A stretch of 64,000 nucleotides of DNA, taken from NCBI GenBank assembly GCA_903892035.1, contig CAITGV010000001.1, forward strand, positions 226,711-290,710, read 5' to 3'. Below, piece by piece: positions 3,558 through 38,738 of the stretch. Both the position numbers and the translations under genes were made by a program. Position 1 is the stretch's first letter; the number at the start of each line of letters is the position of its first letter. Below the pieces are notes generated by a model, which saw only the letters and a program-made list of their open reading frames with translations, was not told the DNA's origin and searched no databases. Source of the stretch: an uncultured bacterium. Its GTDB lineage: Bacteria > Patescibacteriota > Minisyncoccia > Phycocordibacterales > UBA9973.

Positions 3558-3622
3558 ATACCACCCCCGTCTCGAGTACGAGTCACCCCCTCCTAAATTA
3601 GGAGGGGGTTAGGGGGTGGTAT
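3558..3622. repeat. GC-rich nested-hairpin repeat element copy 1 (ATACCACCCCC...CCCCCTCCTAAATTAGGAGGGGG...GGGGGTGGTAT)
   Basis: Outer 11-bp inverted repeat encloses an inner perfect palindrome CCCCCTCCTAAATTAGGAGGGGG. Two near-identical copies lie at 14665-14730 (inverted) and 38673-38738. This copy starts 5 nt after the clpP stop. Confidence 0.8.
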
Positions 3623-3819
3623 ATTTATTAATTCGGCTATTTCCTGTTTTGAGTAACCTGTGTTATATTAGAACTATCGACATTTAGCAATTTTAAGAAT
3701 GCTTACAGGTACGCTTATATTCAAAAATTTTAGATTTTTATGTTTTTCTTTCCAAATACAGCTTTTAAGAACTAAAATAAAACCTTTGATACAGGGCTAC
3801 TTGTAGGCGCAAAACGTTT

Positions 3820-5346
3820 ATGAGTTTAATAGCAATATTTATAGCAATCGCCGCCCTAGCAGGTGGTACAGGCATAGGATATTACCTACGCCGTGTTGTT
3901 GCACTCGGTCAGCGCCGTTCTATTGAAATCGACATCAAACAAATGATGGTCGGAGCAAAAGAAGAAGCGCAGAGAATAGTGGACGACGCAAAAAAGAAAT
4001 ATGAAGAGAGAGATGGAGAATTAAAAAAACAAGAAAAAGAAAAAGAGGTCGAATACAAACGCACAGAAGAACGTCTTATTAAAAAAGAAGAACTTCTCGA
4101 CTCAAGACAAGTAGAAATAGATAAAGAAGTTGAAAATATAAAACTTAAGGTTGAAGAAGTTAAAAAAATTAAAGAGCGCATCGATGAGGCAGATAAAGTG
4201 AAACAAAAAGAATTGGAAAAAATTTCTCACCTTTCTGTCGAAGATGCCAAAACAGAACTCTTTAAACAAATTGAAGATGAATACGAGCAAGACTTTCTTG
4301 TGCGAATGCAGAAGCTTGAAGTTTCAGCTGCCGACAAACTTGATCGTCGCGCAAAAGAAATTCTTTCAACTGCAATCCAACGTCTCGCCGCTTCTACTGC
4401 TTCAGATATGATGACGACAAATGTCATAATTCCAAATGATGACATTAAAGGAAAAATTATTGGAAAAGAAGGGCGCAACATTCGTGCATTTGAACGTGCA
4501 TCTGGCGTTGAGTTAATTGTCGATGACACTCCAGGAACAATTGTTATTTCATCATTTGATCCTGTTCGCCGACAAGTCGCGCGCCTCGCTTTAGAAAACT
4601 TAATTCTTGATGGAAGAATTCAGCCAGCAAAAATTGAGGAAATGGTAGACAAGGCAAAAGAAGATATAAATAAAATAATTAAAGAAAAAGGTGAACAAGC
4701 AGTTTACGAATGTGGAATATTTAACTTCGATCCACGCCTCGTCACCATCGTCGGTCGTTTATATTTCCGAACAAGTTACGGACAAAACGTTCTACAACAT
4801 TCTATTGAAATGACACACATCGCAGGTATGCTTGCTGAAGAACTTGGCGCCGATGTTGCGATAGCAAAAGCTGGCGCACTTGTTCACGATATCGGAAAAG
4901 CACTCGACCATGAAGTTCAAGGAACTCACATAGAAATTGGAATTCGTATTTTGCAAAAATTTGGTGCAGACCCTCGCGTCATCACAGCGATGAAATCTCA
5001 CCACGAAGACTACCCATACGAAACTATCGAGGCTGTCATCGTGCAAACTGCCGATGCAATTTCTGGAGGTCGCCCTGGTGCTCGTCGTGATAGTGTAGAA
5101 AATTATTTGAAGCGCTTGCGTGAACTCGAAGGATTGGTAAATGCCTTTCCTGGAATAGAAAAATCTTATGCTCTTCAAGCTGGTCGTGAAATCCGAATCT
5201 TTGTCACTCCAGAAAAAGTGAACGATGTCGAGGCTCGTGAAATGGCTCGTGAAATTGCAAAGAAGATTGAAAACGAACTCAAGTACCCTGGAGAAATCAA
5301 GGTTACAATGATCCGAGAAACTCGCGTTATAGAATTTGCCCGCTAA
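3820..5346 (+). CDS. rny: Ribonuclease Y (N-terminal TM, coiled coil, KH and HD domains)
   Basis: N-terminal TM helix, long charged coiled coil, KH motif IGKEGRNIRAFE, HD motif HDIGKA...H..E. Confidence 0.9.
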   Translation: MSLIAIFIAIAALAGGTGIGYYLRRVVALGQRRSIEIDIKQMMVGAKEEAQRIVDDAKKKYEERDGELKKQEKEKEVEYKRTEERLIKKEELLDSRQVEIDKEVENIKLKVEEVKKIKERIDEADKVKQKELEKISHLSVEDAKTELFKQIEDEYEQDFLVRMQKLEVSAADKLDRRAKEILSTAIQRLAASTASDMMTTNVIIPNDDIKGKIIGKEGRNIRAFERASGVELIVDDTPGTIVISSFDPVRRQVARLALENLILDGRIQPAKIEEMVDKAKEDINKIIKEKGEQAVYECGIFNFDPRLVTIVGRLYFRTSYGQNVLQHSIEMTHIAGMLAEELGADVAIAKAGALVHDIGKALDHEVQGTHIEIGIRILQKFGADPRVITAMKSHHEDYPYETIEAVIVQTADAISGGRPGARRDSVENYLKRLRELEGLVNAFPGIEKSYALQAGREIRIFVTPEKVNDVEAREMAREIAKKIENELKYPGEIKVTMIRETRVIEFAR

Positions 5347-5366
5347 AAATTATGTGTGAAACAAGA

Positions 5367-5408
5367 AAGCCCCCTAGAGATAAGTATCTCAGTGGGCTTT
5401 CTTTTAAT
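5367..5408 (+). terminator. Rho-independent terminator after rny
   Basis: Imperfect hairpin AAAGCCCCCTAGAGATA/TATCTCAGTGGGCTTT followed by CTTTTAATT. Confidence 0.5.
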
Positions 5409-5676
5409 TATTTTCATGACACATCAATCTCAAATTCAGTTTCACAGTTCTGGCAAGCTTGTATCATACTCGTAATAGTATGGTAATTGTCACCTATCGT
5501 CAATCCGCGTGTAACACTAGCTAAATTTTCAGATTACGCAGTGAAACCTATACTAACAATACCGAGGGAGAGTATTGAGGTTTGGTAGTAATGATAGGAT
5601 TAGTTTAGTAATTTTAAATATATAAACTTACATAACATATTGACGGCCGTCGTTGTGTTATACTATATCTTATATT

Positions 5677-6165
5677 ATGGATATACAAGAGGCGACAATT
5701 GGAGATTTGTTAATTGCTTTTCTTGGCAGTGCACGTAGCACTCGCGCCTTTTACCGAATCCTGCGAGAGCGGGCATTTGAAAGAGCAAATCCAAAGTCAG
5801 TGCGCACTACACTCAATCGATTACAGAAACAAGGTTATGTAGAAAATATAAATAGTGAATGGCAACTGACGGGAAAAAAATATGTAAAGAAACAAAAAAG
5901 ATCTCGTATTTATTTCATTCCCTCCCCTTTTAAAAAATCAGACCCTGATCATGCGATAATTAGCTTCGATATTCCGGAGTCAAAACGCTATGCGAGAAAT
6001 TGGTTAAGAAATCAATTGAAAATTTTTAATTATCGCATGGTTCACCAGAGCGTATGGGTAGGTCCGGGTCCATTACCAAAGAAATTTTCTGAGATAGCAA
6101 AGACTCTTGAAATAGAAACAAACATCCGCATTTTCAAAATTTCAAAAGGAAGTAAAATAAAATAA
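5677..6165 (+). CDS. Putative regulator with N-terminal winged-helix and C-terminal Cas2/PaaX_C-like domain
   Basis: C-terminal half ISFDIPESKRYARNWLRNQLKIFNYRMVHQSVWVG resembles the Cas2/VapD fold region (V.YDV...KRR.KL...L...G.RVQ.SVFE). N-terminus resembles a wHTH. Start is ambiguous (5653 or 5677). No CRISPR array nearby. Confidence 0.35.
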   Translation: MDIQEATIGDLLIAFLGSARSTRAFYRILRERAFERANPKSVRTTLNRLQKQGYVENINSEWQLTGKKYVKKQKRSRIYFIPSPFKKSDPDHAIISFDIPESKRYARNWLRNQLKIFNYRMVHQSVWVGPGPLPKKFSEIAKTLEIETNIRIFKISKGSKIK

Positions 6166-6196
6166 AAATGCTCACAATTGTGAGCATTTTTATTTA
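6165..6196. terminator. Bidirectional terminator hairpin between convergent genes
   Basis: Perfect palindrome AAAATGCTCACAATTGTGAGCATTTT, flanked by A-run and T-run. Confidence 0.6.
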
Positions 6197-6202
6197 GTAT
6201 TT

Positions 6203-7192
6203 TTATTTTTCTCCTAGCGTATACCTATCGAGCAAGCATTCAAACATCAGCGGAGCGACGATGGTGGCGTCGGATTCGATGACAAATTTTGGAGTGTCTT
6301 TTGTAAGTTTGTCCCAAGTGATTTTTTCATTTGGTGTTGCGCCGGAGTATGAACCATACGAAGTTGTCGAATCACTTATCTGACAGAAGTAAGCCCATGG
6401 TTTTACTTCTTGCTCTAGATCGTATTTGATAGAAGGCACAACACAAATTGGAAAGTCTCCAGAAATCCCCCCACCAATTTGATAAAATCCACAACCAAAA
6501 CCTTCCGAAAGTTTTTTATAAACATCGTAAAGGTAAACCATATATTCAACTCCACTTTTTACAATTTTTGGATCAAGCTCTCCCCTTTTACAATATCCTG
6601 CAAAAATATTTCCAAGTGTCGAATCTTCCCAACCAGGCACAACCATTGGTAAATCTTTTTCTGCGGCTGCAAGCAACCAGCACTCCGCTGGGTCACCTTC
6701 ATATAAATCTTTCAATTCTCCAGAGCGTAAAAGTTTGTAAAAATATTCGTGAGGAAAATATCTCTCGCCTTTTTCTTGGGCTTCTTTCCAAAAACGTAAA
6801 ATGATTGCTTCAATTTTTCTAAATGCTTCTTCTTCTGGAATAGACATGTCGGTCACACGGCGGTGCCCAGCGTCCAATATTGCAACATCATCTTCTTCAC
6901 GAAAATATCGATAGTCTGGGAAATCTTTGTAGCTGTGATGTGCAACAAGACGAAAGACTGATTCTTCAAGGTTTGCACCAGTACAAGAAACAGCATGCAT
7001 TTTATTTGCGCGAATCATTGGTGCTAAAGTAATACCAAGTCGTGCAGAAGACATTGCTCCCGCCATAGCGAGGAACATTGTACCACCTTGGTCTAAATGT
7101 TTTTGATAAGCCAATGTCGCATCTTTAAAAGCGCGAGCATTGAAATGGAAAAAAGTATTCGAAACCCAATCAATAAAATTTTTATTTTTCAT
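6203..7192 (-). CDS. Deoxyhypusine synthase-like protein (DHS / homospermidine-synthase family)
   Basis: VSCTGANLEESVF aligns with the DHS NAD-binding core (TTAGGVEEDLIK-like). Size 329 aa and GGGISGD motif fit the DHS family. Confidence 0.55.
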   Translation of the reverse strand: MKNKNFIDWVSNTFFHFNARAFKDATLAYQKHLDQGGTMFLAMAGAMSSARLGITLAPMIRANKMHAVSCTGANLEESVFRLVAHHSYKDFPDYRYFREEDDVAILDAGHRRVTDMSIPEEEAFRKIEAIILRFWKEAQEKGERYFPHEYFYKLLRSGELKDLYEGDPAECWLLAAAEKDLPMVVPGWEDSTLGNIFAGYCKRGELDPKIVKSGVEYMVYLYDVYKKLSEGFGCGFYQIGGGISGDFPICVVPSIKYDLEQEVKPWAYFCQISDSTTSYGSYSGATPNEKITWDKLTKDTPKFVIESDATIVAPLMFECLLDRYTLGEK

Positions 7193-7214
7193 ACGTTAAT
7201 TATAAGCTATTAAA

Positions 7215-8255
7215 TTATAAAAAAGAAGCAAGTCGGTAAAGCAATCGTGCTCCGACATTTGCGTCCCACTCCCCCTTACCTACCTCGTTTAAATCAAAAC
7301 CAATTATTTTCTTTCCACTTTTTGCCAATTGCTCAATCAAATATACTGCTTGTTCGTAACCAAGTCCATCTGGCACAGGAGTCCCTGTATTTGGGCAATT
7401 TTTCGGATCCAAACCATCAATATCAAAACTGATATATACTTTCTCAGGTAAATTCTTAATTATTTTCTTACACAAATTGTCCCATGTCGCACCATTACTC
7501 ATCTCTCCCGCCATATCTTTCATGTAAAATGCTTCCACGCGACCAGCTGAATTTTTTACAACATCCACTTCCCCTTCTCCGTAATCTCGTATTCCAACTG
7601 CAACCAATTTCTTTAATTCTTTTATTTTCAAAGCATTGTGCATTATAGACGCATGAGAATACGTAAATCCTTCAAAGGAATCTCTTAGATCATGATGAGC
7701 ATCAATTTGTAAAATTCCAAAATCACCATTTATTTCTGCGTGGGCTTGAAAAGCACCGAGCATTGCTCCATGCTCCCCTCCAAGGACTGCAACTTTTTTA
7801 CCCAATTTTGAAAATTTTATTACTTCATTTTTCAACCAAAGATTCAATTTCTCGCTTTCTTTATTTATTTCTGCAAGCTCTTTTTCTAATTTTATATTCT
7901 TTTTCGCTTTTTCACCCAATACTATATTTGCCAAATGTCTTTCTGCTTTCACACGAAGTTCTTTATTTTTTTTCAAAAGTGTTTTTGAAATTGGCTCGAG
8001 TGAAATTCCTTTTTTCCAAAAATCTTTTATTAAAGGATTATATAAGTCGACTTGGTCCGATGCTTCCGAAACTAAAGTAGGAGCACTCGCTGTCCCCTTT
8101 CTGTATGACACAGTCACTTCCCAGGGCACAGGAATAATAACAATTTCACTTTCTTCAGTCGTAAACGGAAGTCCAAAAATATTTCTACCCTCAAAAGCCA
8201 TTGCTGTTGGATCAAAATTTTTTATTTTATCTTCTTTTGTAAGTTTTTTTATCAT
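7215..8255 (-). CDS. Agmatinase/arginase-family ureohydrolase with ~60-aa coiled-coil insertion
   Basis: Ureohydrolase Mn-binding motifs LGGEHG (GGDHS variant), QIDAHHDLR, SFDIDGLDP. A lysine/glutamate-rich insertion (residues ~75-145) is not present in canonical SpeB. Confidence 0.7.
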   Translation of the reverse strand: MIKKLTKEDKIKNFDPTAMAFEGRNIFGLPFTTEESEIVIIPVPWEVTVSYRKGTASAPTLVSEASDQVDLYNPLIKDFWKKGISLEPISKTLLKKNKELRVKAERHLANIVLGEKAKKNIKLEKELAEINKESEKLNLWLKNEVIKFSKLGKKVAVLGGEHGAMLGAFQAHAEINGDFGILQIDAHHDLRDSFEGFTYSHASIMHNALKIKELKKLVAVGIRDYGEGEVDVVKNSAGRVEAFYMKDMAGEMSNGATWDNLCKKIIKNLPEKVYISFDIDGLDPKNCPNTGTPVPDGLGYEQAVYLIEQLAKSGKKIIGFDLNEVGKGEWDANVGARLLYRLASFL

Positions 8256-8390
8256 AATGCATCTAAATTAAGTAAAATAATCCACGGAATTAATTTTTTG
8301 AAAGGTCCTCGGAAAAAATCCCCAGACCATTTCAAAAAACAAATTCCGCTTCTTATAAAACCACACTATTTGTATCAAATGTGGCCTGTA

Positions 8391-8418
8391 TTGTCAAAAA
8401 AACAGGCAGGAGTATAAT
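8391..8418 (+). promoter_or_regulatory. Sigma70-like promoter upstream of hup (TTGTCA-16-TATAAT)
   Basis: TTGTCA at 8391-8396 and TATAAT at 8413-8418, about 80 nt upstream of the hup ATG. Confidence 0.5.
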
Positions 8419-8500
8419 GTCCTTATGTTTCAATGGTTTGACCCAGAGGCCAAACCAGACGCTGGTCGAGCTATTATTCGTTTAATTTTAAATAAACACA

Positions 8501-8773
8501 ATGAATAAACAAGCACTAGTAGAGTGGGTTCACGGCAAAATCGGGGGCACAAAGGTTGCTTCAGAAGAAGTCGTAGACGGTTTGATTGAGGCTATCATCG
8601 GTACTTTAAAAAAAGGAGGTGAAGTTTCAATTGCAGGCTTGGGAATCTTTTCAGTCAAGGCACGCGCAGCTCGTATGGCTCGCAACCCAAAGACTGGCGA
8701 AGCTGTAAAAGTTGCAGCTACAAAAGTTCCAAAGTTCCGCGCAGCAAAAGCATTCAAGGATGCTGTAAAATAG
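8501..8773 (+). CDS. hup: DNA-binding protein HU
   Basis: 90 aa. GLGIFSVKARAARMARNPKTGEAVKV is the HU/IHF arm signature. Confidence 0.9.
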   Translation: MNKQALVEWVHGKIGGTKVASEEVVDGLIEAIIGTLKKGGEVSIAGLGIFSVKARAARMARNPKTGEAVKVAATKVPKFRAAKAFKDAVK

Positions 8774-8794
8774 TTTTTTTCTCATGAGGAAATT

Positions 8795-8822
8795 AAAAAA
8801 TCACCCAAACGGGTGATTTTTT
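8795..8822 (+). terminator. Rho-independent terminator after hup
   Basis: AAAAAATCACCCAAACGGGTGATTTTTT. Perfect 8-bp stem plus T-run. Confidence 0.75.
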
Positions 8823-8879
8823 AATTGTTGCAAACTTCTCAATAGTGAGTATAGTGAGAAAGTATAAAAAAATTAAATA

Positions 8880-9332
8880 ATGCATATGAAAAATGACATT
8901 TTAGTGTACTCAAAGAATCCAGATTTTTTTAGTACTATCTACCCTACTCTAGGATTAGATACCTTAACAGGAGAAAAGATACAATTTAGTGAATATACTA
9001 AATTTAGTACTTTTTTTCGAGAAATGAGAACGTTGCCAGATATAATGCTAGTAGACAAGCTTAGTATTAGTTTTCCTGAAATGGGAGATATAATTCAAAT
9101 TGTTTACCCTTATATCGACGATGTCCTAACTGCAGTATTGTATAGTGAAGAAGATGGTAAGAACATTTTTCCATGTTTCGATGAATTAAAAAGAAAACAT
9201 AAAAATTTTTCTGTAATCGGAACAATTGAACCATGGAAACTAGGGTCAATGCTTGGTGGAGATTCGGCTCATGCCAGAATTCTTTTAGTACAAATACTAG
9301 AAGGAATTATCAAAAATAAGACAGGTACCTAA
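8880..9332 (+). CDS. Hypothetical protein
   Basis: 150-aa ORF with terminator-like hairpin (GACAGGTACC...GCCTGTC + T-run) at its 3' end. No recognisable motif. Confidence 0.4.
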   Translation: MHMKNDILVYSKNPDFFSTIYPTLGLDTLTGEKIQFSEYTKFSTFFREMRTLPDIMLVDKLSISFPEMGDIIQIVYPYIDDVLTAVLYSEEDGKNIFPCFDELKRKHKNFSVIGTIEPWKLGSMLGGDSAHARILLVQILEGIIKNKTGT

Positions 9333-9399
9333 CACGGCCTGTCATTATTTTTTCTTGTGTCAAAACGGCTTTTCTGATATTATGCCAACAGGTTTTCTT

Positions 9400-9470
9400 G
9401 CGGGATTAGTTAAATGGTATAACTCTAGTTTTCCAAACTAGTGTCGGGAGTTCGATTCTCCCATCCCGCA
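9400..9470 (+). tRNA. tRNA-Gly (anticodon UCC)
   Basis: Cloverleaf folded by hand. Acceptor GCGGGAT/ATCCCGC, anticodon stem CTAGT/ACTAG, loop TTTCCAA, T-arm GGGAG-TTCGATT-CTCCC. No encoded CCA. Confidence 0.8.
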
Positions 9471-9531
9471 CATTTGCATTTTCTATACATAAGAATACAA
9501 TTAGTAATTATAATTTAATCAATATAAATTT

Positions 9532-9735: not shown

Positions 9736-9737
9736 CT

Positions 9738-9766
9738 AAAAAAGCCAGCAAATGCTGGCTTTTTTA
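9738..9766. terminator. Bidirectional terminator hairpin
   Basis: AAAAAGCCAGCAAATGCTGGCTTTTTT. Lies between a +strand ORF and the 3' end of minus-strand tRNA-Pro. Confidence 0.7.
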
Positions 9767-9774
9767 GTATATTG

Positions 9775-9845: not shown

Positions 9846-9907
9846 AATAATTTATAAAAATACCAAGTTATACTACCACGAAATTTCATAAAAACAAACT
9901 AAAACTC

Positions 9908-13740: not shown

Positions 13741-14655
13741 TTAATTCTTTTTATCGTGAAACTTTTTGTGTACATCTCTTAACTGTTTGTCTGTAATGTG
13801 TGTATAAATTTGTGTTGTAGAAATATTAGCATGTCCAAGCATCATCTGCACACTACGAATGTCTGCACCATTTGAAAGCAAGTCGGTCGCAAAACTGTGC
13901 CGCAAAACGTGTGGGGTAACTTTTTTTGAAATTCCCGCTTTTATTGCGTAGTATTTTACAATTCTCTCTATGGAGCGAGGGGTGAGGCGAGCAGAGCCAC
14001 TTTGTTTTTTTGAAAGTTGGGCAAATAGTGGTTCATGCATATCCTTGCGAGCTTTTAAATATTCACGCAAAGCCATCTTTGCATCTTCTGAAAGAAAAAC
14101 AACACGAACTTTTTCTCCTTTTCCGCGGATTGAAAATTCATCTTTCGATAAATCTAAATCACGATTAAGAGAACAAAGTTCTGAAAGACGTAAGCCAGTT
14201 GAGAAAAAAAGTTCAAGTAATGCTCGATCGCGAAGTCCTTTTAAATTATTTGTATCAGGAGCACTTATAAGTCTACCGAGTTCGCCAGCAGAAACTAAAT
14301 CCAAACTTCTTTCTTTTACTTTTGCCAATTCGATGTGGTCAGGGGAGAGTGCTTTCATTCCACGCTTCATCATATATTTCAAAAAACCTCGAAGCGCAAT
14401 GAGGTGATAATTTTGTGTATTTTTTTTCAAACTCGCAGAAGTTTGACCTTTTACTTTCGCTCCAGCTTGTCGATTTAAATATAAACGAAATTCTCGAATT
14501 GAATCTTCTGAAATATCACCCTCATTTCCAATTTTTCCAAATTCAAAGTAGCGCGAAAGATAGCGATCGTAATTTTCGACAGTTTTTAGACTATTTCCTT
14601 TTTCAATTTCGACATATTCGAGGAATTCACGCTTAAGTTTTTGAATATCAGGCAT
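13741..14655 (-). CDS. xerC: Tyrosine site-specific recombinase XerC/XerD family
   Basis: C-terminal catalytic motifs TPHVLRHSFATDLL, GHANISTTQIYTH (R-H-R-Y tetrad context). Confidence 0.85.
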   Translation of the reverse strand: MPDIQKLKREFLEYVEIEKGNSLKTVENYDRYLSRYFEFGKIGNEGDISEDSIREFRLYLNRQAGAKVKGQTSASLKKNTQNYHLIALRGFLKYMMKRGMKALSPDHIELAKVKERSLDLVSAGELGRLISAPDTNNLKGLRDRALLELFFSTGLRLSELCSLNRDLDLSKDEFSIRGKGEKVRVVFLSEDAKMALREYLKARKDMHEPLFAQLSKKQSGSARLTPRSIERIVKYYAIKAGISKKVTPHVLRHSFATDLLSNGADIRSVQMMLGHANISTTQIYTHITDKQLRDVHKKFHDKKN

Positions 14656-14664
14656 AAAAACATT

Positions 14665-14730
14665 ATACCACCCCCTGGCCCCCTCCTAAATTAGGAGGGG
14701 GTGACTTGTACTCGAGACGGGGGTGGTATA
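14665..14730. repeat. GC-rich nested-hairpin repeat element copy 2 (inverted relative to copies 1 and 3)
   Basis: ATACCACCCCCTGGCCCCCTCCTAAATTAGGAGGGGGTGACTTGTACTCGAGACGGGGGTGGTAT. The side arm CTCGAG...is the reverse complement of the arm in copy 1. Sits in the divergent xerC/rpsO promoter region. Confidence 0.8.
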
Positions 14731-14788: not shown

Positions 14789-15052
14789 ATGCTGACAACA
14801 AAGAAAAAAAGCTTAGTTATAAAGAAAAGCCAAATCCACGACAAAGATACAGGTTCTCCTGAGGTCCAAGTGGCTATTTTGTCTCGTTCTATAGACGATC
14901 TTGCAAATCACCTCAAAAAACACAAAAAAGATAACCATTCTCGCCGAGGTCTCATCAAAATGGTGGCTGACCGCCGAGGACATCTCAAGTATTTGGAAAG
15001 AAAAGACAAGGTTCGCTTTGCTGCTCTTACTAAAAAGCTCAAATTAGACTAG
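14789..15052 (+). CDS. rpsO: 30S ribosomal protein S15
   Basis: H.KDNHSRRGLIKMVADRRGHLKYL signature. Start moved to the internal ATG (MLTTKKK) to give the canonical ~88-aa length. Confidence 0.85.
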   Translation: MLTTKKKSLVIKKSQIHDKDTGSPEVQVAILSRSIDDLANHLKKHKKDNHSRRGLIKMVADRRGHLKYLERKDKVRFAALTKKLKLD

Positions 15053-26700: not shown

Positions 26701-26792
26701 CTTCCTCTCCTTTACAAGGAGAGGATACAGGAGAGGTTCTTAATTAATGCACCTCTCCCCAACCCCTCTCCTTATTAATGAGAGGGGGGGGG
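26701..26792. repeat. Second-family palindromic repeat (CCTCTCC/GGAGAGG modules), intergenic copy
   Basis: Hairpins CCTCTCCTTTACAAGGAGAGG and CCCCTCTCCTTATTAATGAGAGGGG. Shares CACCTCTCCCCAACCC(C)TCTCCTTA with the copy at 35234-35333. The G-run creates a spurious upstream ATG for ksgA. Confidence 0.75.
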
Positions 26793-31467: not shown

Positions 31468-34400
31468 GTGCATATGAAAAAAAAGAATTTCATACAAAAA
31501 ATATTGATTGGCTTCATGCTCTGCGTGATTCTTCTCGCGCCTGTTTCTTTGTCTTTAAATAAAAATGATATAAAGAATTTTCTGGGAGGAAATAGAGCCG
31601 AAGCAGCAACGACACCAAATGCCATTCATGCGTCAAAATGGTATTACGTAAGTGATATTTCAGCTACAAGTGTAGGGAATACATCACTTACTTTAAAATT
31701 TAGTTTTAAAAAAATTGATAAATTAAGCATAGCTGTTGAAAGCTACGCAATATTAGTTTCTGTAAATGATGCAAACAATTTTACTACAACAAATGGGATA
31801 TCAACGGTAATTGCTGACGTTGAACCAACAACACAAAGTTGGGCAGATTCACCTGACACAATACCCGACCAAACTGCTACTTTTAATGACTTTTTCCCAG
31901 TAAGAGCACCTACTGACTATTACTTAAAAGCCAAATCAAATCAAACGGTAGGTTTTTTGCTTGGAAATATGGGTCTTTATTCTGATCCAATAAAAGTAAC
32001 CACCTTAGATAAAAACAACTCAATAGACCAACAAAATCAAAATGATCCAAATGCACTAAATTTAACTAATCCTGATCAAATTGATGTAAGTAATGACTTT
32101 AGTTGTGGATTTATTTCTAAAGATTCAAGCATACTGGGTTGTGTTGTTAAAATTACCTATTATGTTGTTTTTGTGCCTGCATCATGGGTATTTGAGTTAA
32201 CTGGAAAATTGTTTGATTTCTTTATTGGATACAGCTTGGACAGTAAATCTTACAGCGGATCAAGCATGATAACTGAAGGTTGGAAAATTGTTCGTGACAT
32301 TTCAAATATATTTTTTATATTTATTTTACTTTACGTTGCCATTGCAACAATTTTAGACTTACATGGTTTTGAAGCAAAGAAAATGATTGGTACTGTGGTC
32401 GTAATTGCAGTATTAATTAACTTTTCATTGTTTTTTACTCAAGTAATTATTGATACAGGAAACATTGCTGCTCGGGTTTTTTATAATGGAATTACAGTAA
32501 ATGGTCCAGACGGAACAGAGCTCAACTCAACTAATGGAAAACAACTTTCTGTTGCAATTGTAAATCAGTTTAAACCTCAGAAAATGTTTAATAAAACATT
32601 ACTAAACGAAAGCACCAGCATAAAGGATAGTAGCGGTAATATTGCGCAATTGGGTACTTCCGGTTATCAGGGATTTTTCATAATTATTACATTAATCGCA
32701 GCAGCAATTTGTTTACTTGGTGCTTACACATTCTTTATGTCTGCTTTTATCTTTCTCGGACGTGTGATTCAACTATGGATTTCAATGATATTCGCCCCTT
32801 TTGCTTTTGTTTCATATGTTGTTCCTGGCGCAAAAGGCATGAAGGGAATTGGTGCAGACTCTTGGTGGAAAGATTTACTTGGAAATGCATTTTTGGCACC
32901 AATTTTTATATTCTTCATTTATTTAATTATTCGATTTTTGAAAATAATCACGATCATTAACATTAGTAACGACGCATCACTTATGAGTATTGTGATGTCA
33001 ATCGTTATTCCTCTCTTAATTATAACTTTCCTTTTGATCAAAGCTCGTAAGATTGCCGAGAGTTTGGCGGGGGACATCGGTGGATATATGGTTACAGCGG
33101 CAAAAGCTGTGGGTGGCACTATTGTTGGAGCATCGATGGGTATTGCAGCTGTGGCTGGAAGGCAGACTGTGGGAAGAGGAGCAAACTGGCTTTCAAGCAA
33201 TAAAACTCTTGCAGAATGGTCATCTGGTAAAAAAGGTTGGGTAGCGCAAGCTCTTGCAAAACCTTTGTCATCGAAAGTAAATACACTTTCAAAATCAAGC
33301 TTTGATGTTCGTAATAGTGCTGGTGGCCAACAAGTTTCATCTCTCACTGGCTTTAACTTAAATAATGCAGGGACAAAATTTGCAACACTCGATACTGCAA
33401 ATACTGCTGGTGGTTGGGTAGGTAAACAGGCTCGCCAAGCTCAAAAAGAAAAAGAAATTGCCGAAAATCTAAACAAAGGTTACGACAAGGCTTTGTTTGA
33501 ACAACAAGATGAAGAAGTCCACCACAGAGAAGAAAAAATTCATGAGAAAGAAGAAGAAATTGCTGCAAAAACACTTAGTAGAGACCAGTTTACAAGAGGT
33601 ACACCACAATGGGAAGAAAATAATAAAGAATTGGCATTAATGAAACAAAATCTTTCAGTATTAAAAACTGGAGGGGTTATGAGAAAATATGTTGAAAAGG
33701 ATGAAATTGATCCTAATACAGGAGAAAAAACAGGTAATAAAATTAAAGTACTCGAAAATGAAAAAGATGCCGATGGTAAAGACAAAAAAACTGATGGCCT
33801 ATCAAAGATGCAGGGTGACCTTGCTAGAATTAAAACTGCACCGGAGACAGAATACTATGCAAATAAGCGTCGTGAATCTGGCCAGGTATTTATGGACGAC
33901 GAGCGTGACAAAAATGGAAACATTAAAAGATTTGGCAGACGCGTCACAGCAAACAATGCAGCTGCATATGAAACAGAAAGACTTACAAAGGATATAAGAA
34001 AACTCAATAACGAAATCGAAACAAGAAGAACAAAAAATCCAAATGATCCGAAAATCAAAGAGTTTGGTGAAAAAGTAACAGATTACGAAAAGAAAATTGG
34101 GGTATTACAATCTGAAAAAACTCTGGTTGATACTTTCCACAAAGATGCTTCGCAAGCAAAAAATAATGTTGCTTCACTAACAAAAGAAATACAAACACTA
34201 TATAAAAAAGGTGATCTAACAACTGCAGATAGAGCAACTATTGCTGAAAAGGAAGCTAAAATTAAAAACGAAACCGCAAAACTTACACCAAATGACGCAG
34301 TTAGTAAGGCAATGAAAAACCAAAAAGACTTAATTGGTGATATTAACTTCAAACAAGGAATGAAACAAATTGGAAAAGAAGCTGTTAAAGGATTCTTTGC

Positions 34401-34725
34401 TGGAGTTACTGATTGGCGTTCATGGGCTACTGCAACAGTCGGTTCAGCTATGGGTAAAAGTTTTGCAAAAGTATTGCTTGGAACTGGGGGTGGGGCTTTC
34501 GAATCAGTAAAACGCGTACTTATGGACTATAGTGGAAGAATGAATCAAGATATTGCAAAAGCGGCGGCGGCGAAGTTTGGAAAGTCTACATATGAAGCTC
34601 CGTCTGGAGGAGGTCACGGAGGTGGTGGACACGATGACCATCATGAAGAAGCACACGCTCCAGCATCAAATGGACACGGAGCAGGAGGTCACGATGATCA
34701 CGGTGGGGGAGGAAATAAACATTAG
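31468..34725 (+). CDS. VirB6/TrbL-like polytopic membrane protein with extracellular N-domain and long cytoplasmic coiled-coil tail
   Basis: Signal peptide and ~230-aa exodomain, at least 6 TM helices in the central region, then a ~550-aa charged coiled-coil C-terminus ending in a His/Gly-rich tail (GGHGGGGHDDHHEE..GGHDDHGGGG). This architecture is typical of Gram-positive-type VirB6 homologs. Confidence 0.5.
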   Translation: MHMKKKNFIQKILIGFMLCVILLAPVSLSLNKNDIKNFLGGNRAEAATTPNAIHASKWYYVSDISATSVGNTSLTLKFSFKKIDKLSIAVESYAILVSVNDANNFTTTNGISTVIADVEPTTQSWADSPDTIPDQTATFNDFFPVRAPTDYYLKAKSNQTVGFLLGNMGLYSDPIKVTTLDKNNSIDQQNQNDPNALNLTNPDQIDVSNDFSCGFISKDSSILGCVVKITYYVVFVPASWVFELTGKLFDFFIGYSLDSKSYSGSSMITEGWKIVRDISNIFFIFILLYVAIATILDLHGFEAKKMIGTVVVIAVLINFSLFFTQVIIDTGNIAARVFYNGITVNGPDGTELNSTNGKQLSVAIVNQFKPQKMFNKTLLNESTSIKDSSGNIAQLGTSGYQGFFIIITLIAAAICLLGAYTFFMSAFIFLGRVIQLWISMIFAPFAFVSYVVPGAKGMKGIGADSWWKDLLGNAFLAPIFIFFIYLIIRFLKIITIINISNDASLMSIVMSIVIPLLIITFLLIKARKIAESLAGDIGGYMVTAAKAVGGTIVGASMGIAAVAGRQTVGRGANWLSSNKTLAEWSSGKKGWVAQALAKPLSSKVNTLSKSSFDVRNSAGGQQVSSLTGFNLNNAGTKFATLDTANTAGGWVGKQARQAQKEKEIAENLNKGYDKALFEQQDEEVHHREEKIHEKEEEIAAKTLSRDQFTRGTPQWEENNKELALMKQNLSVLKTGGVMRKYVEKDEIDPNTGEKTGNKIKVLENEKDADGKDKKTDGLSKMQGDLARIKTAPETEYYANKRRESGQVFMDDERDKNGNIKRFGRRVTANNAAAYETERLTKDIRKLNNEIETRRTKNPNDPKIKEFGEKVTDYEKKIGVLQSEKTLVDTFHKDASQAKNNVASLTKEIQTLYKKGDLTTADRATIAEKEAKIKNETAKLTPNDAVSKAMKNQKDLIGDINFKQGMKQIGKEAVKGFFAGVTDWRSWATATVGSAMGKSFAKVLLGTGGGAFESVKRVLMDYSGRMNQDIAKAAAAKFGKSTYEAPSGGGHGGGGHDDHHEEAHAPASNGHGAGGHDDHGGGGNKH

Positions 34726-34740
34726 AAATTGTTGAATTTT

Positions 34741-34773
34741 TCCCTCTCATTTCAGGAGAGGGTCAGGGTTAGG
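34741..34773. repeat. Second-family hairpin module (CCCTCTC-ATTTCAG-GAGAGGG) downstream of VirB6-like gene
   Basis: 7-bp perfect stem, GC-rich, 16 nt after the stop codon. Same CCTCTC/GAGAGG motif as the repeats at 26701 and 35234. Confidence 0.55.
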
Positions 34774-34811
34774 TAAGATAGTTTGAATTTAATTTATGTT
34801 ACAATAAATAT

Positions 34812-35615
34812 ATGGACAAAGAAAAAGTAATGCAAAGAATAAAAGAAGCTTATGAAATTTTGCCTGAAGATATTCAGAAGGCAATTATGGATTCAAGCTA
34901 TCAAGAAACTCTTACTGACATTGCAAAAAATAATAAACTTACTTACGAGCAACTTGGAAGTTTGGAAATGCAAACTACAATGGTAATGCTCGGTCTCACG
35001 CACCCAAATAGTTTCCGCCACGACCTAGGCGAAGATTTGGAAATTAAAGACCAAGAACTCTTGAAAAAAATTGTTGAAGAAGTGAATGAAAGAATATTTA
35101 AAAATATTCGTGAATCACTCCAAGCAATACATGAAGTAAATGAATCTGACACCGACGACGACAATGAAACTTTTTGGAAAGTTGGTCACGAAAATGAAAA
35201 AGTGCCAGGCGATGGGGAAGATGAAGAGGAAATCACCTCTCCCCAACCCTCTCCTTATAAAGGAGAGGGAGCCCAACCCGCAGTTTCCCCCCTCATTAAT
35301 AAGGAGGGGGGTCAGGGGGGAGGTTCTTCTGACATCTTCAAAAAATCCGGCATTGAATTTATAAACCCCGTAGTAAAAGTTCCAACCCCAATTCCACAAC
35401 CGACAGATACCGAAAGAAATAAAATATTAAGTGGTGTAGAAAACCCTATCGCTGGAACATCGGCAATGAATGTCCCACCCAAAGAAAGTATTTTAGAAAA
35501 AAAACTTACAACTTCTTTTGGTTTGCCAAAAGTTGAAAGTGATCATACTGTTCCGAATATCACAAAAGCTGAAGATAAAAAAGTAAGTAGTGATCCGTAT
35601 CGAGAAGCAATCTAA
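34812..35615 (+). CDS. Acidic hypothetical protein carrying an in-frame palindromic-repeat insertion
   Basis: 267-aa ORF. Residues ~141-175 (ITSPQPSPYKGEGAQPAVSPLINKEGGQGGG) are encoded by a copy of the CCTCTCC/GGAGAGG repeat. Confidence 0.45.
   Translation: MDKEKVMQRIKEAYEILPEDIQKAIMDSSYQETLTDIAKNNKLTYEQLGSLEMQTTMVMLGLTHPNSFRHDLGEDLEIKDQELLKKIVEEVNERIFKNIRESLQAIHEVNESDTDDDNETFWKVGHENEKVPGDGEDEEEITSPQPSPYKGEGAQPAVSPLINKEGGQGGGSSDIFKKSGIEFINPVVKVPTPIPQPTDTERNKILSGVENPIAGTSAMNVPPKESILEKKLTTSFGLPKVESDHTVPNITKAEDKKVSSDPYREAI
35234..35333. repeat. Second-family palindromic repeat copy located inside a CDS
   Basis: CACCTCTCCCCAACCCTCTCCTTATAAAGGAGAGGG...CCCCCCTCATTAATAAGGAGGGGGG. The second hairpin is the reverse complement of the CTCCTTATTAATGAG module at 26770-26790. 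Confidence 0.75.
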
Positions 35616-36025
35616 TGCAATTCAAAGTTCCACAATTTATCGATGTTGAAGACAAGATTTTTGGGCCTTTCAGCTTCAAGGAATTTGCTTACATAGTCGG
35701 AGGCCTAGGTGCTTCATATGTAGTTTATAAAATAATGCCTTTAATTTTAGGTATTTTTCTTATAATCCCCATTCTTGCTCTTGCTGGGGCTCTGACATTT
35801 ATAAAAATCAACAATAGACCATTTATCGATATTCTTCAGTCGGCTTTTCAATACGCATTTCAAGATAAACTTTATGTTTGGAAAAAAGCTCAAAAGAAAA
35901 AGAAAAAAGTTGAAGAGGTGGTCGCAACAGAAAGTTTGGTTCCACGTTTATCTGAAAGTAAATTGAAAGATTTATCTTGGAGTTTAGATGTTTTGGATGC
36001 AAGAAAAAATAGTACTCCAAAATGA
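35615..36025 (+). CDS. VirB3/PrgI-like small membrane protein (two TM helices)
   Basis: 136 aa with two adjacent hydrophobic helices, sited immediately upstream of VirB4, as for PrgI/TcpE/VirB3. Assignment rests on position and topology only. Confidence 0.35.
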   Translation: MQFKVPQFIDVEDKIFGPFSFKEFAYIVGGLGASYVVYKIMPLILGIFLIIPILALAGALTFIKINNRPFIDILQSAFQYAFQDKLYVWKKAQKKKKKVEEVVATESLVPRLSESKLKDLSWSLDVLDARKNSTPK

Positions 36026-36137
36026 AATATTTATAAAAAAAGTCCTCGGGTCTCCTCATCTACGATTCGGCCAGACATTTTTTTATTAACATTTCATTTT
36101 TACGTACAAAGTCACATAACAATGATATAATAAATTT

Positions 36138-36827
36138 ATGGCAGTTAATGCAAAATCGACACAAGGATTTGTACCAATAAAAGAAGTACGCGATGGCATA
36201 GTAATCCTCAAAGATGGGGGAGTGCGCGCAATTCTTATGGCTTCTTCTGTAAACCTTTCACTAAAATCTGCCGATGAACAACGCGCGACAATTGCACAAT
36301 TTCAATCCTTTTTAAATTCTCTAGAATTTTCTACACAAATTGTTATTCAATCTCGCCGTCTAGACATCCGCCCATACCTTTTAACCCTAGAAACTAGAAT
36401 GAAGGATCAACTTGAACCATTGTTAAAAGTTCAAACTCGTGAATATATTGAATTTATCCGTTCATTCACAGAACAAGTAAATATAATGACAAAAAACTTT
36501 TTTATAGTTGTCCCATATTCAACTCCTGCAATTTCACCAGAGGGTGGAATAATGCAATTCTTAGGAATGTCGAAAAAATCTGGCAAAACAGGGGACAAAA
36601 AAGGTGATGCTTTGATTGATTTCGAAGAAAAAAGAAGCCAACTCGAACAACGCACAAGCATTGTTTCCGACGGTCTTTCAAGAATTGGAGTACGGACGGT
36701 GATGCTCGGCACAGAAGAAGTGATAGAATTGTTTTATAAGACTTTCAATCCAGGCGACACGAGTCAGGGTGTAGCACTGCCAGGAAAAGAAAGTGAGGGT
36801 GACGCAAATAAACAACCAAAACAATAA
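36138..36827 (+). CDS. VirB4-family ATPase, N-terminal domain encoded as a separate ORF
   Basis: FVPIKEVRDGIVILKDGGVRAILMASSVNLSLKSADEQ matches the conserved N-terminus of Gram-positive-type VirB4 (TrsE/PrgJ/TcpF). Stop TAA 36825-36827 is followed after 1 nt by the ATG of the next ORF. Confidence 0.6.
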   Translation: MAVNAKSTQGFVPIKEVRDGIVILKDGGVRAILMASSVNLSLKSADEQRATIAQFQSFLNSLEFSTQIVIQSRRLDIRPYLLTLETRMKDQLEPLLKVQTREYIEFIRSFTEQVNIMTKNFFIVVPYSTPAISPEGGIMQFLGMSKKSGKTGDKKGDALIDFEEKRSQLEQRTSIVSDGLSRIGVRTVMLGTEEVIELFYKTFNPGDTSQGVALPGKESEGDANKQPKQ

Positions 36828-36828
36828 T

Positions 36829-38667
36829 ATGAGCATAATAGACGATTTGTTTGGAAAAAAAAATACGAAGGTTGGAACAGACAAACAAGTCCTGCCTGTT
36901 TTGCCGTCTGAAATTTACGAAGCAGCAACTCTAGACTTCCAAGACATCATAGCTCCCTCTGCTTTGCGTGTTGAACCAAAAGCACTAAATCTTGGAGAAA
37001 AATTGGCGCGCACTTATTTTGTCATTTCTTACCCTCGATATCTTACAGACAATTGGTTTTCACCAATCATCAATCTCGATAAAATTTTTGATGTTTCAAT
37101 TTTTATTCACCCGATAGATACAGCAGTAGTATTAAGGCAATTTCAAAAAAAAGTTGCCGAAGTTCAAAGCCAAATAAACGAACGTTCAAAAAAGGGTCTG
37201 GTGCGCGACCCAATGCTCGACACTGCATACCAAGACTTGGAAGGCCTGCGCAACAATTTAATGCAAGCTCAAGAAAAAATGTTTGACGTCGGACTCTACA
37301 TCACAATGTATGCTGACAATGAAAATGAACTTTTCAAAATTGAAAACGAAATCAAATCAATTTTAGAATCTCGCCTAGTATATTTTAAACCAGCTCTCTT
37401 CCAGCAAGAAGAAGCTTTCAAGAGCGTAATGCCGACTGGCACCGACCTCCTAAATATTCACCAAAAATTAAATTCTGAACCACTCTCATCAATTTTTCCT
37501 TTCGTTTCTTTTGACCTCACTTCGGATAAAGGAATTCTTTACGGCGTGAATCGCCACAATTCTAGTCTTGTTATTTTTGATCGTTTCTCTTTGGAAAATT
37601 ACAACTCTATCACTTTTGCAAAATCTGGTTCTGGAAAATCATACGCTACAAAATTGGAAATCATTCGTACATTAATGTTTGATACAGAGGTAATAGTTAT
37701 CGACCCCGAGCGTGAATACGAATACCTTGCAGAAGCCATCGGTGGAAGATATTTCAATATCTCTCTTTCTTCAGATCACCATATCAACCCTTTTGATTTG
37801 CCAATACCAAGAAGTGATGAAAATCCTGCGGACATTTTGCGTTCAAATATCATAAACCTCGTCGGTCTTTTCCGTATTATGCTCGGAGGCTTAACTCCTG
37901 AAGAAGATTCAATTATCGATCGCGCAATCAGTGAAACTTACGCGCTTAAAGATATTTCAGCAGAATCAGATTTTTCAAATATCGAGCCACCACTTTTGTC
38001 TGATTTCGAAATGGTTCTATCTGGAATGGAGGGGAGTGAGTCTATTATTCAACGTCTTACAAAATACACTCGTGGCACGTGGTCTACTTTCATAAACCAG
38101 CCTTCAAATGTGGATATAAATCGTAAATTTGTCGTTTTCTCTGTACGTGATATGGAAGACGAGCTAAAACCAGTGGCAATGTACATAGTCACTCACTTTA
38201 TCTGGAATGCTGTTCGCAAAAACTTAAAAAAGAGGCTTCTTGTTGTGGATGAGGCATGGTGGATGATGAAATCTGACGACACAGCCTCTTTCCTTTACTC
38301 AATTGCAAAACGAGGCCGTAAATATTTCCTTGGTCTTGCGACAATTACCCAAGACGTCGGCGACTTTATGAAAAGCCCGTACGGTGTGCCAATTGTCACA
38401 AACTCTTCAATTCAAATGCTTTTAAAACAATCACCTTCGACTATCGACCTACTACAAAAGACCTTTAACCTTACAGATGAAGAAAAATATCTACTCCTTG
38501 AGTCAAATGTGGGGGAGGGCATATTCTTTGCGGGACTCAAACACGTTGCAATTAAAATTATTTCATCATATACGGAAGACCAAATTATTACTTCCGACCC
38601 ATCGCAGGTTTTAGCAATAAAAAAAGCAAAGGATGATTTGGCGGCAAGTGAATCTGGGCAGAAATAA
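36829..38667 (+). CDS. VirB4-family conjugation/T4SS ATPase, core and C-terminal ATPase domain
   Basis: RTYFVISYPR (VirB4 middle-domain motif), Walker A ITFAKSGSGKSYA, Walker B LLVVDEAWWMM. Confidence 0.8.
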   Translation: MSIIDDLFGKKNTKVGTDKQVLPVLPSEIYEAATLDFQDIIAPSALRVEPKALNLGEKLARTYFVISYPRYLTDNWFSPIINLDKIFDVSIFIHPIDTAVVLRQFQKKVAEVQSQINERSKKGLVRDPMLDTAYQDLEGLRNNLMQAQEKMFDVGLYITMYADNENELFKIENEIKSILESRLVYFKPALFQQEEAFKSVMPTGTDLLNIHQKLNSEPLSSIFPFVSFDLTSDKGILYGVNRHNSSLVIFDRFSLENYNSITFAKSGSGKSYATKLEIIRTLMFDTEVIVIDPEREYEYLAEAIGGRYFNISLSSDHHINPFDLPIPRSDENPADILRSNIINLVGLFRIMLGGLTPEEDSIIDRAISETYALKDISAESDFSNIEPPLLSDFEMVLSGMEGSESIIQRLTKYTRGTWSTFINQPSNVDINRKFVVFSVRDMEDELKPVAMYIVTHFIWNAVRKNLKKRLLVVDEAWWMMKSDDTASFLYSIAKRGRKYFLGLATITQDVGDFMKSPYGVPIVTNSSIQMLLKQSPSTIDLLQKTFNLTDEEKYLLLESNVGEGIFFAGLKHVAIKIISSYTEDQIITSDPSQVLAIKKAKDDLAASESGQK

Positions 38668-38672
38668 AAATT

Positions 38673-38738
38673 ATACCACCCCCGATTCGATTACGAATCT
38701 CCCCCTCCTAAATTAGGAGGGGGTAAAGGGGGTGGTAT
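38673..38738. repeat. GC-rich nested-hairpin repeat element copy 3
   Basis: ATACCACCCCCGATTCGATTACGAATCTCCCCCTCCTAAATTAGGAGGGGGTAAAGGGGGTGGTAT. Same orientation as copy 1. Starts 6 nt after the VirB4 stop. Confidence 0.8.

Follow-up and report, generated by a model that had tools for sequence, protein, structure and literature searches.

The window, a 64-kb stretch from the 37% GC genome of a Paceibacteria-type CPR bacterium (Patescibacteria), carries three near-identical copies of a 65–66-nt GC-rich nested hairpin at positions 3558–3622, 14665–14729 (inverted) and 38673–38738. The 23-mer CCCCCTCCTAAATTAGGAGGGGG matched the window exactly three times (at 3586, 14679 and 38701) and none of 100 shuffles, confirming the three copies originally predicted, and ATACCACCCCC and its complement were found at both sides of each copy (6 matches, 0.21 expected).

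Copy 1 lies on the plus strand and begins 5 nt past the clpP stop codon (3550–3552). Its parts are, in order, the left arm ATACCACCCCC (3558–3568), a side hairpin (3569–3585), the main hairpin CCCCCTCCTAA-A-TTAGGAGGGGG (3586–3608), the linker TTAG (3609–3612), whose final G doubles as the first base of the right arm as written, and the right arm GGGGGTGGTAT (3612–3622). Copy 2 has the same part order when read on the minus strand and is positioned 9 nt upstream of an xerC-like start codon (14653–14655, minus strand) and 59 nt upstream of rpsO (ATG at 14789). Copy 3, on the plus strand, has a variant side hairpin, GATTCGATTACGAATC, and the linker TAAA; it begins 5 nt past the stop codon (38665–38667) of a VirB4/TraC-like ATPase gene, which it separates from the following gene in a conserved T4SS-like cluster. 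These gene contexts agree with the original prediction. Its description of copy 2 as an exact inverse ending at 14730 needs correction: the layout is inverse and ends at 14729, yet it differs from copy 1 at four positions (one side-arm base, two linker bases and the loop centre). Likewise, the supposedly perfect 23-bp inner palindrome is an 11+1+11 structure, with A as the plus-strand centre base of every copy, the inverted one among them. In 3/3 copies, the tight hairpin-plus-G-arm is on the sense strand of the adjoining gene.

Variation among the copies is confined to the side arm, linker and loop centre, which hold all ten variable columns, and the outer arms and main stem (45 nt) are invariant. 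Copies 1 and 3 have homologous side arms (12/17 identical), with one compensatory pair change from C-G to T-A and one T.T changed to A-T. RNA folding, proposed at the outset as a check, predicted a stable fold in which the outer stem, the small side hairpin and the main hairpin meet at a three-way junction (−40 to −47 kcal/mol, z −6 to −7.4); the DNA fold was predicted at −22 to −28 kcal/mol (z −6.7 to −8.6). Rfam at the gathering threshold returned only four tRNAs from the window, and a permissive search with copy 1 gave best sub-threshold scores of 12–19 bits against thresholds of 40–110. The flanking AT..AT might belong to the stem instead of marking a target-site duplication, and copy 3 lacks a corresponding duplicate. 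We excluded the AT-rich flanks (GAAATAAAA..) from the element because the C terminus and stop codon of the VirB4-like gene align with those of orthologues without the element.

Related elements and empty sites

About three to four degenerate relatives are also present in the window. A type-2 relative at 26704–26790 (plus strand), between a uvrD-like gene and rsmA, consists of the hairpin CCTCTCCTTTACAAGGAGAGG, a linker, the arm GGAGAGGTT, 11 nt, the arm CACCTCTCCCC and the hairpin CCCCTCTCC..GAGAGGGG; its spacer is missing in a related locus (L203). A half element at 34742–34774 (plus strand) comprises the hairpin CCCTCTCATTTCAGGAGAGGG, the linker TCA and the arm GGGTTAGGT. Last, a full type-2 element at 35234–35325 (plus strand), made up of the arm CACCTCTCCCC, hairpin A, a spacer, hairpin B and the arm GGGGGGAGGTT, lies in frame within the ORF at 34812–35615 and adds about 30 residues that orthologues do not have. 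These relatives, like the mirror-repeat (triplex) grammar that links the element to BoxC/TMECO, had gone unseen in the original prediction.

The hairpin with flanking arms as in the window occurs at at least 120 genomic loci in many phyla, mostly as solo elements, which bears out the suggestion of a dispersed REP/MITE-like family extending beyond the three loci. Among the matches listed, 109 of 135 hairpins have ACC[AT]CCCC or GGGG[AT]GGT no more than 7 nt away. The site of copy 3 is empty in four syntenic loci of two related Paceibacteria, in which the orthologous spacer is 46 nt. More generally, the elements occupy very short intergenic spacers, relatives are found inside ORFs, and orthologous sites in related genomes are without them. 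Judged from these sequence comparisons, the elements behave like non-coding DNA insertions of a selfish type.

They resemble bacterial MITEs (Correia/NEMIS, ERIC, Nezha and Chunjie) in being shorter than 100 bp, in having terminal inverted repeats (11 nt here) and a long stem-loop, in inserting into intergenic spacers and operons, and in their presence or absence between relatives. Whether the elements carry a target-site duplication is not clear from their flanks. An all-against-all ORF comparison of the matches listed from the at least 120 loci recovered no cognate IS or transposase, only the DUF559 family; furthermore, termini of the window type recur across phyla, which those of IS-derived MITEs do not. 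The in-frame element at 35234–35325 recalls the Rickettsia palindromic elements, which are also in-frame palindromic repeats in genes of a reduced genome, but those are 100–150 bp long and lack triplex mirror grammar, and no sequence relationship is apparent.

A mirror-repeat grammar

The elements follow a common grammar of C-rich arm, loop, G-rich arm, 3–4-nt linker and mirrored G-rich arm, in which A is mirrored by A or T. In the window copies, the second G-rich block, GGGGGTGGT, follows a 4-nt linker and mirrors the purine arm of the hairpin with A changed to T. In the class II purine motif of three-block intrastrand triplexes (BoxC/PIT/TM), a pyrimidine stem, a loop of 1–6 nt, a purine stem, a second loop of 1–6 nt and a third stem antiparallel to the purine stem form C-G.G and T-A.T/A triads over 6–15 nt. 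All three copies have this arrangement, at 3586–3620 (plus strand), 14667–14701 (minus strand) and 38701–38736, each with nine triads (seven C-G.G and two T-A.T) and a 4-nt second loop. A strict scan of the window for triplex motifs detected five sites with 8/8 triads, compared with none in 30 shuffles. With three copies in 64 kb, 45 invariant nucleotides and one inverted copy, the elements are also multicopy, intergenic, conserved and in inverted configuration; type-2 relatives are partly intragenic. Across all loci, 304 of 848 hairpin sides lead, over a 2–4-nt linker, into a block that mirrors the purine arm (G as G, A as A or T) at no fewer than 7/8 positions, 231 of them perfectly, and the mean mirror score was 7.59, compared with 6.69 ± 0.035 for permuted partners.

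BoxC/PIT elements were reportedly described by Bachellier et al. in the 1990s and by Hoyne, Maher et al. in 2000. Like the window element, BoxC/PIT/TMECO repeats combine a C-rich stem, a loop, a G-rich stem, a 3–4-nt loop and a mirror G-rich stem (A/T opposite A), and they are multicopy, intergenic, highly conserved between copies, often in inverted pairs and in transposase-free surroundings. The window stem CCCCCTCCT / GGGGGTGGT differs from the CCCTCNCCC / GGGNGAGGG of TMECO, and the consensus CCCTCNCCC-N3-6-GGGNGAGGG had no match in the window; the window element thus belongs to the same structural class but to another sequence family. Its main hairpin is, in addition, enclosed by both complementary arms and accompanied by an extra small side hairpin, and it has relatives within ORFs, whereas TMECO is reported to be always intergenic (PMC4666352). 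The TMECO/BoxC motif CCCTCNCCC-N3-6-GGGNGAGGG-N3-GGGNGAGGG forms a triplex in vitro according to CD and NMR, and no triplex protection by DMS was seen in vivo (Holder et al. 2015, PMC4666352). By its sequence, the window element is a member of a cross-phylum intrastrand-triplex repeat class of which E. coli BoxC is the described example.

By analogy with TMECO, the window sequence itself may form a triplex. On a single DNA strand, GGGGGTGGT could occupy the hairpin's major groove and form seven C-G.G and two T-A.T triads; alternatively, pairing with its complement, the ACCACCCCC arm on the opposite side, could close the three-way junction. The candidate triplex-forming oligonucleotide of the element is CCCCCTCCTAAATTAGGAGGGGGTTAGGGGGTGGT. 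Simple Watson–Crick pairing between the outer arms of complete elements would compete with the triplex. Two other readings of the G-rich arms were set aside. A G-quadruplex leaves the mirror covariation unaccounted for and must compete with a 9–11-bp GC hairpin; for TMECO it was ruled out by NMR (Holder et al. 2015, PMC4666352). Shine-Dalgarno/anti-Shine-Dalgarno mimicry was dropped as the source of cross-phylum conservation because the A/T position in the arm tracks the hairpin sequence, as the mirror rule describes.

DUF559 genes bracketed by the elements

Among the matches listed from the at least 120 loci, DUF559 (Pfam PF04480) is the sole protein family that recurs on elements (6 loci). 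Its bracketed product is a Vsr-like PD-(D/E)XK nuclease of about 120 aa. We collected 80 metagenomic DUF559 loci, chosen for their closest similarity to DUF559 genes whose association with elements had already been established. In this set, a C-rich perfect hairpin was located no more than 150 nt upstream of the gene at 61 of 78 loci and no more than 170 nt downstream at 42 of 68, and 58 of 65 genes had a hairpin on at least one side (about 150 nt); the background rate of such hairpins was 0.15 per kb (17 in 110 kb). At many loci, the G-arm GGGG(A/T)GGT is 1–15 nt ahead of the DUF559 start codon, for which it may serve as ribosome-binding site, and the C-arm abuts or overlaps the stop codon. 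The adjoining arms GGGGTGGT and ACCACCCC together make a palindrome that is split by the gene. Modules bracket DUF559 in the same way in three CPR genomes (Patescibacteria, Zambryskibacteria and Magasanikbacteria). The arm type follows DUF559 similarity (51.7% versus 46.0% identity, permutation p < 0.002), a relation confounded by host phylogeny. Neither the 64-kb window nor the 7 kb upstream contains a DUF559 gene; one presumably lies elsewhere in the source genome. A full-text literature search found no paper linking these repeats to DUF559/COG2852/YcjD, and Holder et al. 2015 (PMC4666352) make no mention of such an association; the bracketing of DUF559 by these modules is a new observation here.

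The E. coli K-12 DUF559 gene, ycjD, has a degenerate motif at its end and a perfect TMECO 170 nt downstream, a proximity expected by chance only about 0.002 times (23 copies in 4.6 Mb). In a 60-genome spread sample of E. coli, the median number of TMECO-like sites was 16 in genomes with ycjD and 3 in those without (Mann–Whitney p = 6.5e-9, uncorrected for phylogeny); some genomes without ycjD keep 12–17 TMECO-like copies. The sapF–fabI interval of E. coli without ycjD holds a different efflux operon.

Together, we consider it probable that the three window copies are solo members of a nested-palindrome repeat family with purine-motif intrastrand triplex grammar, for which DUF559 would be the partner. 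DUF559 may recognise the folded element and then propagate or process it, by analogy with RAYT and REP/REPIN, and the window copies would therefore be non-autonomous derivatives. We know of no strand-transfer chemistry for PD-(D/E)XK nucleases, so a transposase-like role of DUF559 would need host repair. More broadly, and tentatively, stand-alone DUF559 (YcjD-type, Vsr-like) could be the missing protein partner of BoxC-type triplex repeats bacteria-wide, forming a REPIN/RAYT-like system in which a PD-(D/E)XK nuclease recognises folded hairpin/triplex DNA and which reaches minimal CPR genomes, where the repeats invade coding sequences.

Alternative explanations and implications

Affiliation with REP/REPIN repeats mobilised by a REP-associated tyrosine transposase (RAYT), as raised in the original prediction, would account for short, structured, GC-rich palindromes that are intergenic, present in both orientations, often in inverted doublets and high in copy number, that elsewhere flank one small nuclease-type gene per genome, as REPs flank RAYT, and that are more numerous where the gene is kept. 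A REP, however, is a 20–40-nt imperfect palindrome with a GTAG or CGTC tetranucleotide at one end, and this tag is missing here, the element ends being ATACCACCCCC / GGGGGTGGTAT. A Pfam search of ORFs of at least 100 aa, together with precomputed Pfam hits, in the window and 7 kb upstream yielded no Y1/HUH transposase, the gene flanked elsewhere encodes DUF559, which has an unrelated fold, and REPs have no counterpart of the mirror-repeat third block; we regard this affiliation as extremely unlikely. It is also unlikely that the copies are host-selected RNA elements, either intrinsic terminators or 3′ stabilisers of the clpP and virB4-like mRNAs. Such a role would suit the two copies starting 5 nt past stop codons, the very stable RNA fold (−45 to −47 kcal/mol) and the sense-strand orientation of the hairpin-plus-G-arm, but none of the three copies scores as terminator-like or is followed by a T-run, as a canonical terminator would be, and the inverted repeats of the window that do have T-runs (I2, I23 and I25) look different. 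Furthermore, copy 3 is inside a conserved cluster whose orthologues do without it, copy 2 is upstream of both neighbours, relatives lie within ORFs, and DUF559-proximal stem mismatches have no clear G.U bias (10 G.T versus 5 A.C). PIT/BoxC elements, moreover, reportedly act neither as promoters nor as terminators (PMC4666352).

The modules could also be nothing more than the untranslated control regions at the 5′ and 3′ ends of DUF559 genes, acting by Shine-Dalgarno sequestration, with solo copies as relics of decayed cassettes. The arms close to the start and stop codons fit this proposal, as does the relative at 26704–26790, which has the DUF559-flanking layout of other genomes with only 11 nt in place of the gene. 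Yet the three copies have the opposite part order (C-arm ... G-arm), fit into spacers of about 100 nt that contain no remnant of an ORF and keep 45 invariant nucleotides, and in E. coli there are roughly 15–20 solo copies for the one ycjD gene, making the proposal very unlikely. Alternatively, the element could be a protein-independent non-B DNA repeat (triplex/cruciform) that makes polymerases pause, destabilises the genome locally and spreads through recombination or horizontal transfer; DUF559 would then just be common in its vicinity or act as a tolerance factor. TMECO sites have been linked to rearrangements among E. coli strains and to polymerase stop, with no mobility genes nearby (Holder et al., PMC4666352), and 19 viral stretches carry the motif without DUF559. 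We nevertheless find this doubtful: it leaves unexplained both the tight bounding of DUF559 ORFs by arms in many phyla and the tracking of DUF559 similarity by arm type, the latter being confounded by host phylogeny.

Work on the BoxC/PIT elements of E. coli goes back to the 1990s, and to our knowledge neither their spread nor the factor acting on them has been explained. DUF559 is a very large family for which a structure has been solved (3HRL), and we know of no function for it. A reproducible link between DUF559 and these repeats from E. coli to Patescibacteria gives a testable hypothesis for both in a tractable organism: E. coli offers ycjD and roughly 20 BoxC copies, whose number is higher where the gene is present. 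For CPR genomics, the elements indicate that extremely reduced genomes still harbour proliferating structured repeats, which change intergenic spacing in conserved operons and add peptide segments to proteins.

Three nested-hairpin copies in the window

Within the window, the 23-mer CCCCCTCCTAAATTAGGAGGGGG is found at just three positions, 3586, 14679 and 38701, and in none of 100 shuffles, confirming the three-copy, GC-rich nested-hairpin element of the original prediction. The copies lie at 3558–3622 (copy 1), 14665–14729 (copy 2, inverted) and 38673–38738 (copy 3, 66 nt), and every 23-mer occurrence is enclosed by a C-rich arm, ATACCACCCCC, and a G-rich arm, GGGGGTGGTAT (6 matches in the window versus 0.21 expected). 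The secondary structure of every copy is a three-way junction, with energies of −40 to −47 kcal/mol as RNA (z about −6 to −7) and −22 to −28 kcal/mol as DNA (z −6.7 to −8.6). Alignment of the copies in one orientation revealed 45 invariant nucleotides, in both arms and the main stem, and 10 variable columns, all confined to the side arm (17 nt), the linker (4 nt) and the centre of the loop. Copies 1 and 3 have homologous side arms (12 of 17 positions identical), which differ by, among others, one compensatory pair change and one mismatch converted into a pair. This invariance of the arms and stem argues for constraint on the folded or recognized parts of the element. Copy 2 had been described as an exact inverse; its arrangement is inverted, but its sequence departs from a strict inversion of copy 1. 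At the centre of the main hairpin (3586–3608, 14679–14701 and 38701–38723) the unpaired base is an A on the plus strand in all three copies despite the inversion of copy 2, which may be chance. A suggested terminator role was not supported, as a T-run follows none of the three copies and none was called terminator-like. Rfam returned only tRNAs in the window and no known RNA family at the elements.

Housekeeping genes of a small genome surround the elements. Among them are clpP, RNase Y, PNPase, rpsO, an xerC-like recombinase, uvrD, rsmA, dnaA/dnaN and ruvBC, and a T4SS-like cluster encoding PrgI, TraC-like and VirB4-like proteins. Homologues of the VirB4-like ATPase are 83–89% identical and are named Candidatus Nomurabacteria or Paceibacterota, which places the window in a Patescibacteria (CPR) bacterium. 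Both dnaA (46784–48184) and dnaN (48403–49500) lie in the window, the GC content of the 48–50 kb bin is only 24.7% against about 37% elsewhere, and the dnaA/dnaN region (46784–50000) is possibly the replication origin region. A gene of the 23S rRNA intervening-sequence protein family (PF05635; 54567–54935) adjoins ruvC, and a similar gene is present in a related genome (L202).

The spacer 3′ of the VirB4-like gene is 101 nt long in the window and contains the 66-nt element; in two relatives, across four syntenic loci, it is 46 nt long and element-free. Another assembly of this strain (L207, L121) has identical elements. Four more C-rich hairpins, belonging to another sequence type (type-2), are spread over three elements in the window, at 26704–26790 between the uvrD-like gene and rsmA, at 34742–34774 and at 35234–35325. 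The last, a full element, sits in frame in the open reading frame of a T4SS-cluster protein (34812–35615), where it encodes ~30 extra residues, roughly SPQPSPYKGEGAQPAVSPLINKEGGQGGGSS, that are absent from four orthologues in two related genomes. In relative L203 the uvrD-like gene and rsmA overlap, with no spacer. Another related Paceibacteria genome, L204, has three C-rich perfect hairpins within rsmA (547–1112 of that locus), and its rsmA is longer than that of L203 (329 versus 286 aa), which together suggest further intragenic insertions. Presence or absence between relatives and insertion within reading frames argue for mobility of the element.

A cross-phylum family with a triplex-like mirror rule

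The pattern CCCCCTCCT-N5-AGGAGGGGG, scanned in one genome per species, matched at least 120 loci from Bacteroidota, Ignavibacteriota, Patescibacteria, Armatimonadota, Desulfuromonadales, Chloroflexota, Acidobacteriota and others, with cultured Spirosoma and Larkinella among those listed. In the flanks, which lie outside the pattern, 109 of the 135 hairpins among the matches listed have ACC[AT]CCCC no more than 7 nt away on the 5′ side or GGGG[AT]GGT equally close on the 3′ side. Complete elements begin and end with an arm and have hairpin A, a variable spacer and hairpin B in between.

The block 2–4 nt past a hairpin mirrors its purine arm, with G kept and A becoming A or T. Over all loci analysed, the mirror matches at least 7 of 8 positions on 304 of 848 hairpin sides and is perfect on 231; the A/T position in the third block shifts along with hairpin sequence changes, and permuting partners lowers the mean mirror score from 7.59 to 6.69 ± 0.035. 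This rule is that of purine-motif triple helices, whose triads are C-G.G, T-A.T and T-A.A and whose third strand runs antiparallel to the purine strand. The window copies fit the structural definition of an intrastrand-triplex motif, with 9 triads, on the strand carrying the hairpin and third block, CCCCCTCCTAAATTAGGAGGGGGTTAGGGGGTGGT, and a strict triplex-motif scan returned 5 sites in the window and none in shuffles. Two viral contigs of ~24 kb (IMG/VR 3300044996_000692 and 3300047659_000078; L220/L221 and L214/L222/L225/L229) hold 4–5 exact triplex-motif copies each.

The E. coli BoxC motif (also PIT or TMECO), CCCTCNCCC-N3-6-GGGNGAGGG-N3-GGGNGAGGG, occurs 23 times in MG1655 and 3610 times in 262 proteobacterial genomes; CD and NMR showed that it forms a triplex in vitro, and triplex protection was absent from an in vivo DMS footprint (Holder et al. 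2015, PMC4666352). TMECO sites are all intergenic, include five inverted pairs and "never" lie near a transposase or integrase, and in earlier work BoxC/PIT had neither promoter nor terminator activity (Holder et al. 2015, PMC4666352). The window copies share this structural definition but differ in sequence, with no match to TMECO. They are best classed as solo copies belonging to a BoxC-like structural class. Relative to the known intrastrand-triplex (BoxC) repeats, the element is a variant with a new sequence and a new architecture, in a phylum new to the class.

DUF559 genes bounded by hairpin modules

All-against-all comparison of open reading frames in the at least 120 loci identified only one family sitting on the elements among the loci listed, a ~120-aa protein at six loci in different phyla. 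It belongs to Pfam DUF559 (PF04480, Vsr-like nuclease; E-values 1e-27 to 1e-34); the closest solved structure is an uncharacterised Neisseria protein (3HRL), and NCBIfam and PADLOC give no function for stand-alone DUF559. We then collected 583 metagenomic DUF559 relatives and analysed the flanks of the best 80 for perfect, C-rich hairpins of at least 7 bp. Among these best 80 of 583, such a hairpin was present within 150 nt upstream at 61 of 78 loci, within 170 nt downstream at 42 of 68 and on either side at 58 of 65; away from the gene flanks, the same loci contain 17 in 110 kb.

At many DUF559 loci the start ATG lies 1–15 nt past the G-arm, and at many the stop codon is abutted or overlapped by the C-arm (TGA or TAA, then CCACCCC). 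Set side by side, the arms, GGGGTGGT and ACCACCCC, form a palindromic junction. Many of the modules are built, like the window element, from three parts, an arm, a small and variable side hairpin and a main hairpin, and DUF559 is bracketed likewise in three CPR genomes, one of them Zambryskibacteria. The window element at 26704–26790 has the same bracketing order (hairpin, G-arm, 11 nt, C-arm, hairpin) but is gene-less. DUF559 proteins of the same flank type are 51.7% identical versus 46.0% (permutation p < 0.002), a difference confounded by host phylogeny. Very many DUF559 homologues are on contigs of just 0.5–3 kb, a pattern that would be expected were short-read assemblies to break at repeated flanks. 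Our literature search found no paper linking such repeats to DUF559.

E. coli ycjD and a possible role of DUF559

The DUF559 gene of E. coli K-12, ycjD, has a degenerate motif at its end and a perfect TMECO 170 nt downstream; between ycjD and this BoxC copy lies a duplicated, diverged remnant of the ycjD 3′ end (5244–5420 of locus L213). Of 5426 complete E. coli genomes, 3377 carry the gene. Across 60 evenly spaced genomes, the median number of TMECO-like places was 16 (range 9–23) with ycjD versus 3 (range 1–17) without it (Mann–Whitney p = 6.5e-9, phylogeny ignored). In ycjD-less NC101 and O157:H7 (L233 and L234; sapF-fabI interval), an efflux operon replaces the segment with ycjD and TMECO, and homology returns about 40 nt past the TMECO position.

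The original prediction called the elements REP/MITE-like. This is partly right, in that they are dispersed and present or absent between relatives. A link to a RAYT is not supported: no transposase, RAYT or DUF559 gene was found within the 64-kb window, and the gene recurring at such elements elsewhere is DUF559. That DUF559 genes in many phyla are bounded by these modules suggests a partnership of the REPIN/RAYT kind; DUF559 may mobilise the elements, process them, confer tolerance of them, or be carried as cargo. Simple dependence of the elements on DUF559 is countered by solo copies on DUF559-free viral contigs (no DUF559 gene was found in any of 19 viral stretches examined) and by ycjD-less E. 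coli lineages that hold copies; PD-(D/E)XK nucleases, moreover, have to our knowledge no strand-transfer chemistry. Of these results, the DUF559 link is the one likely to interest specialists, and it can be tested directly in E. coli.
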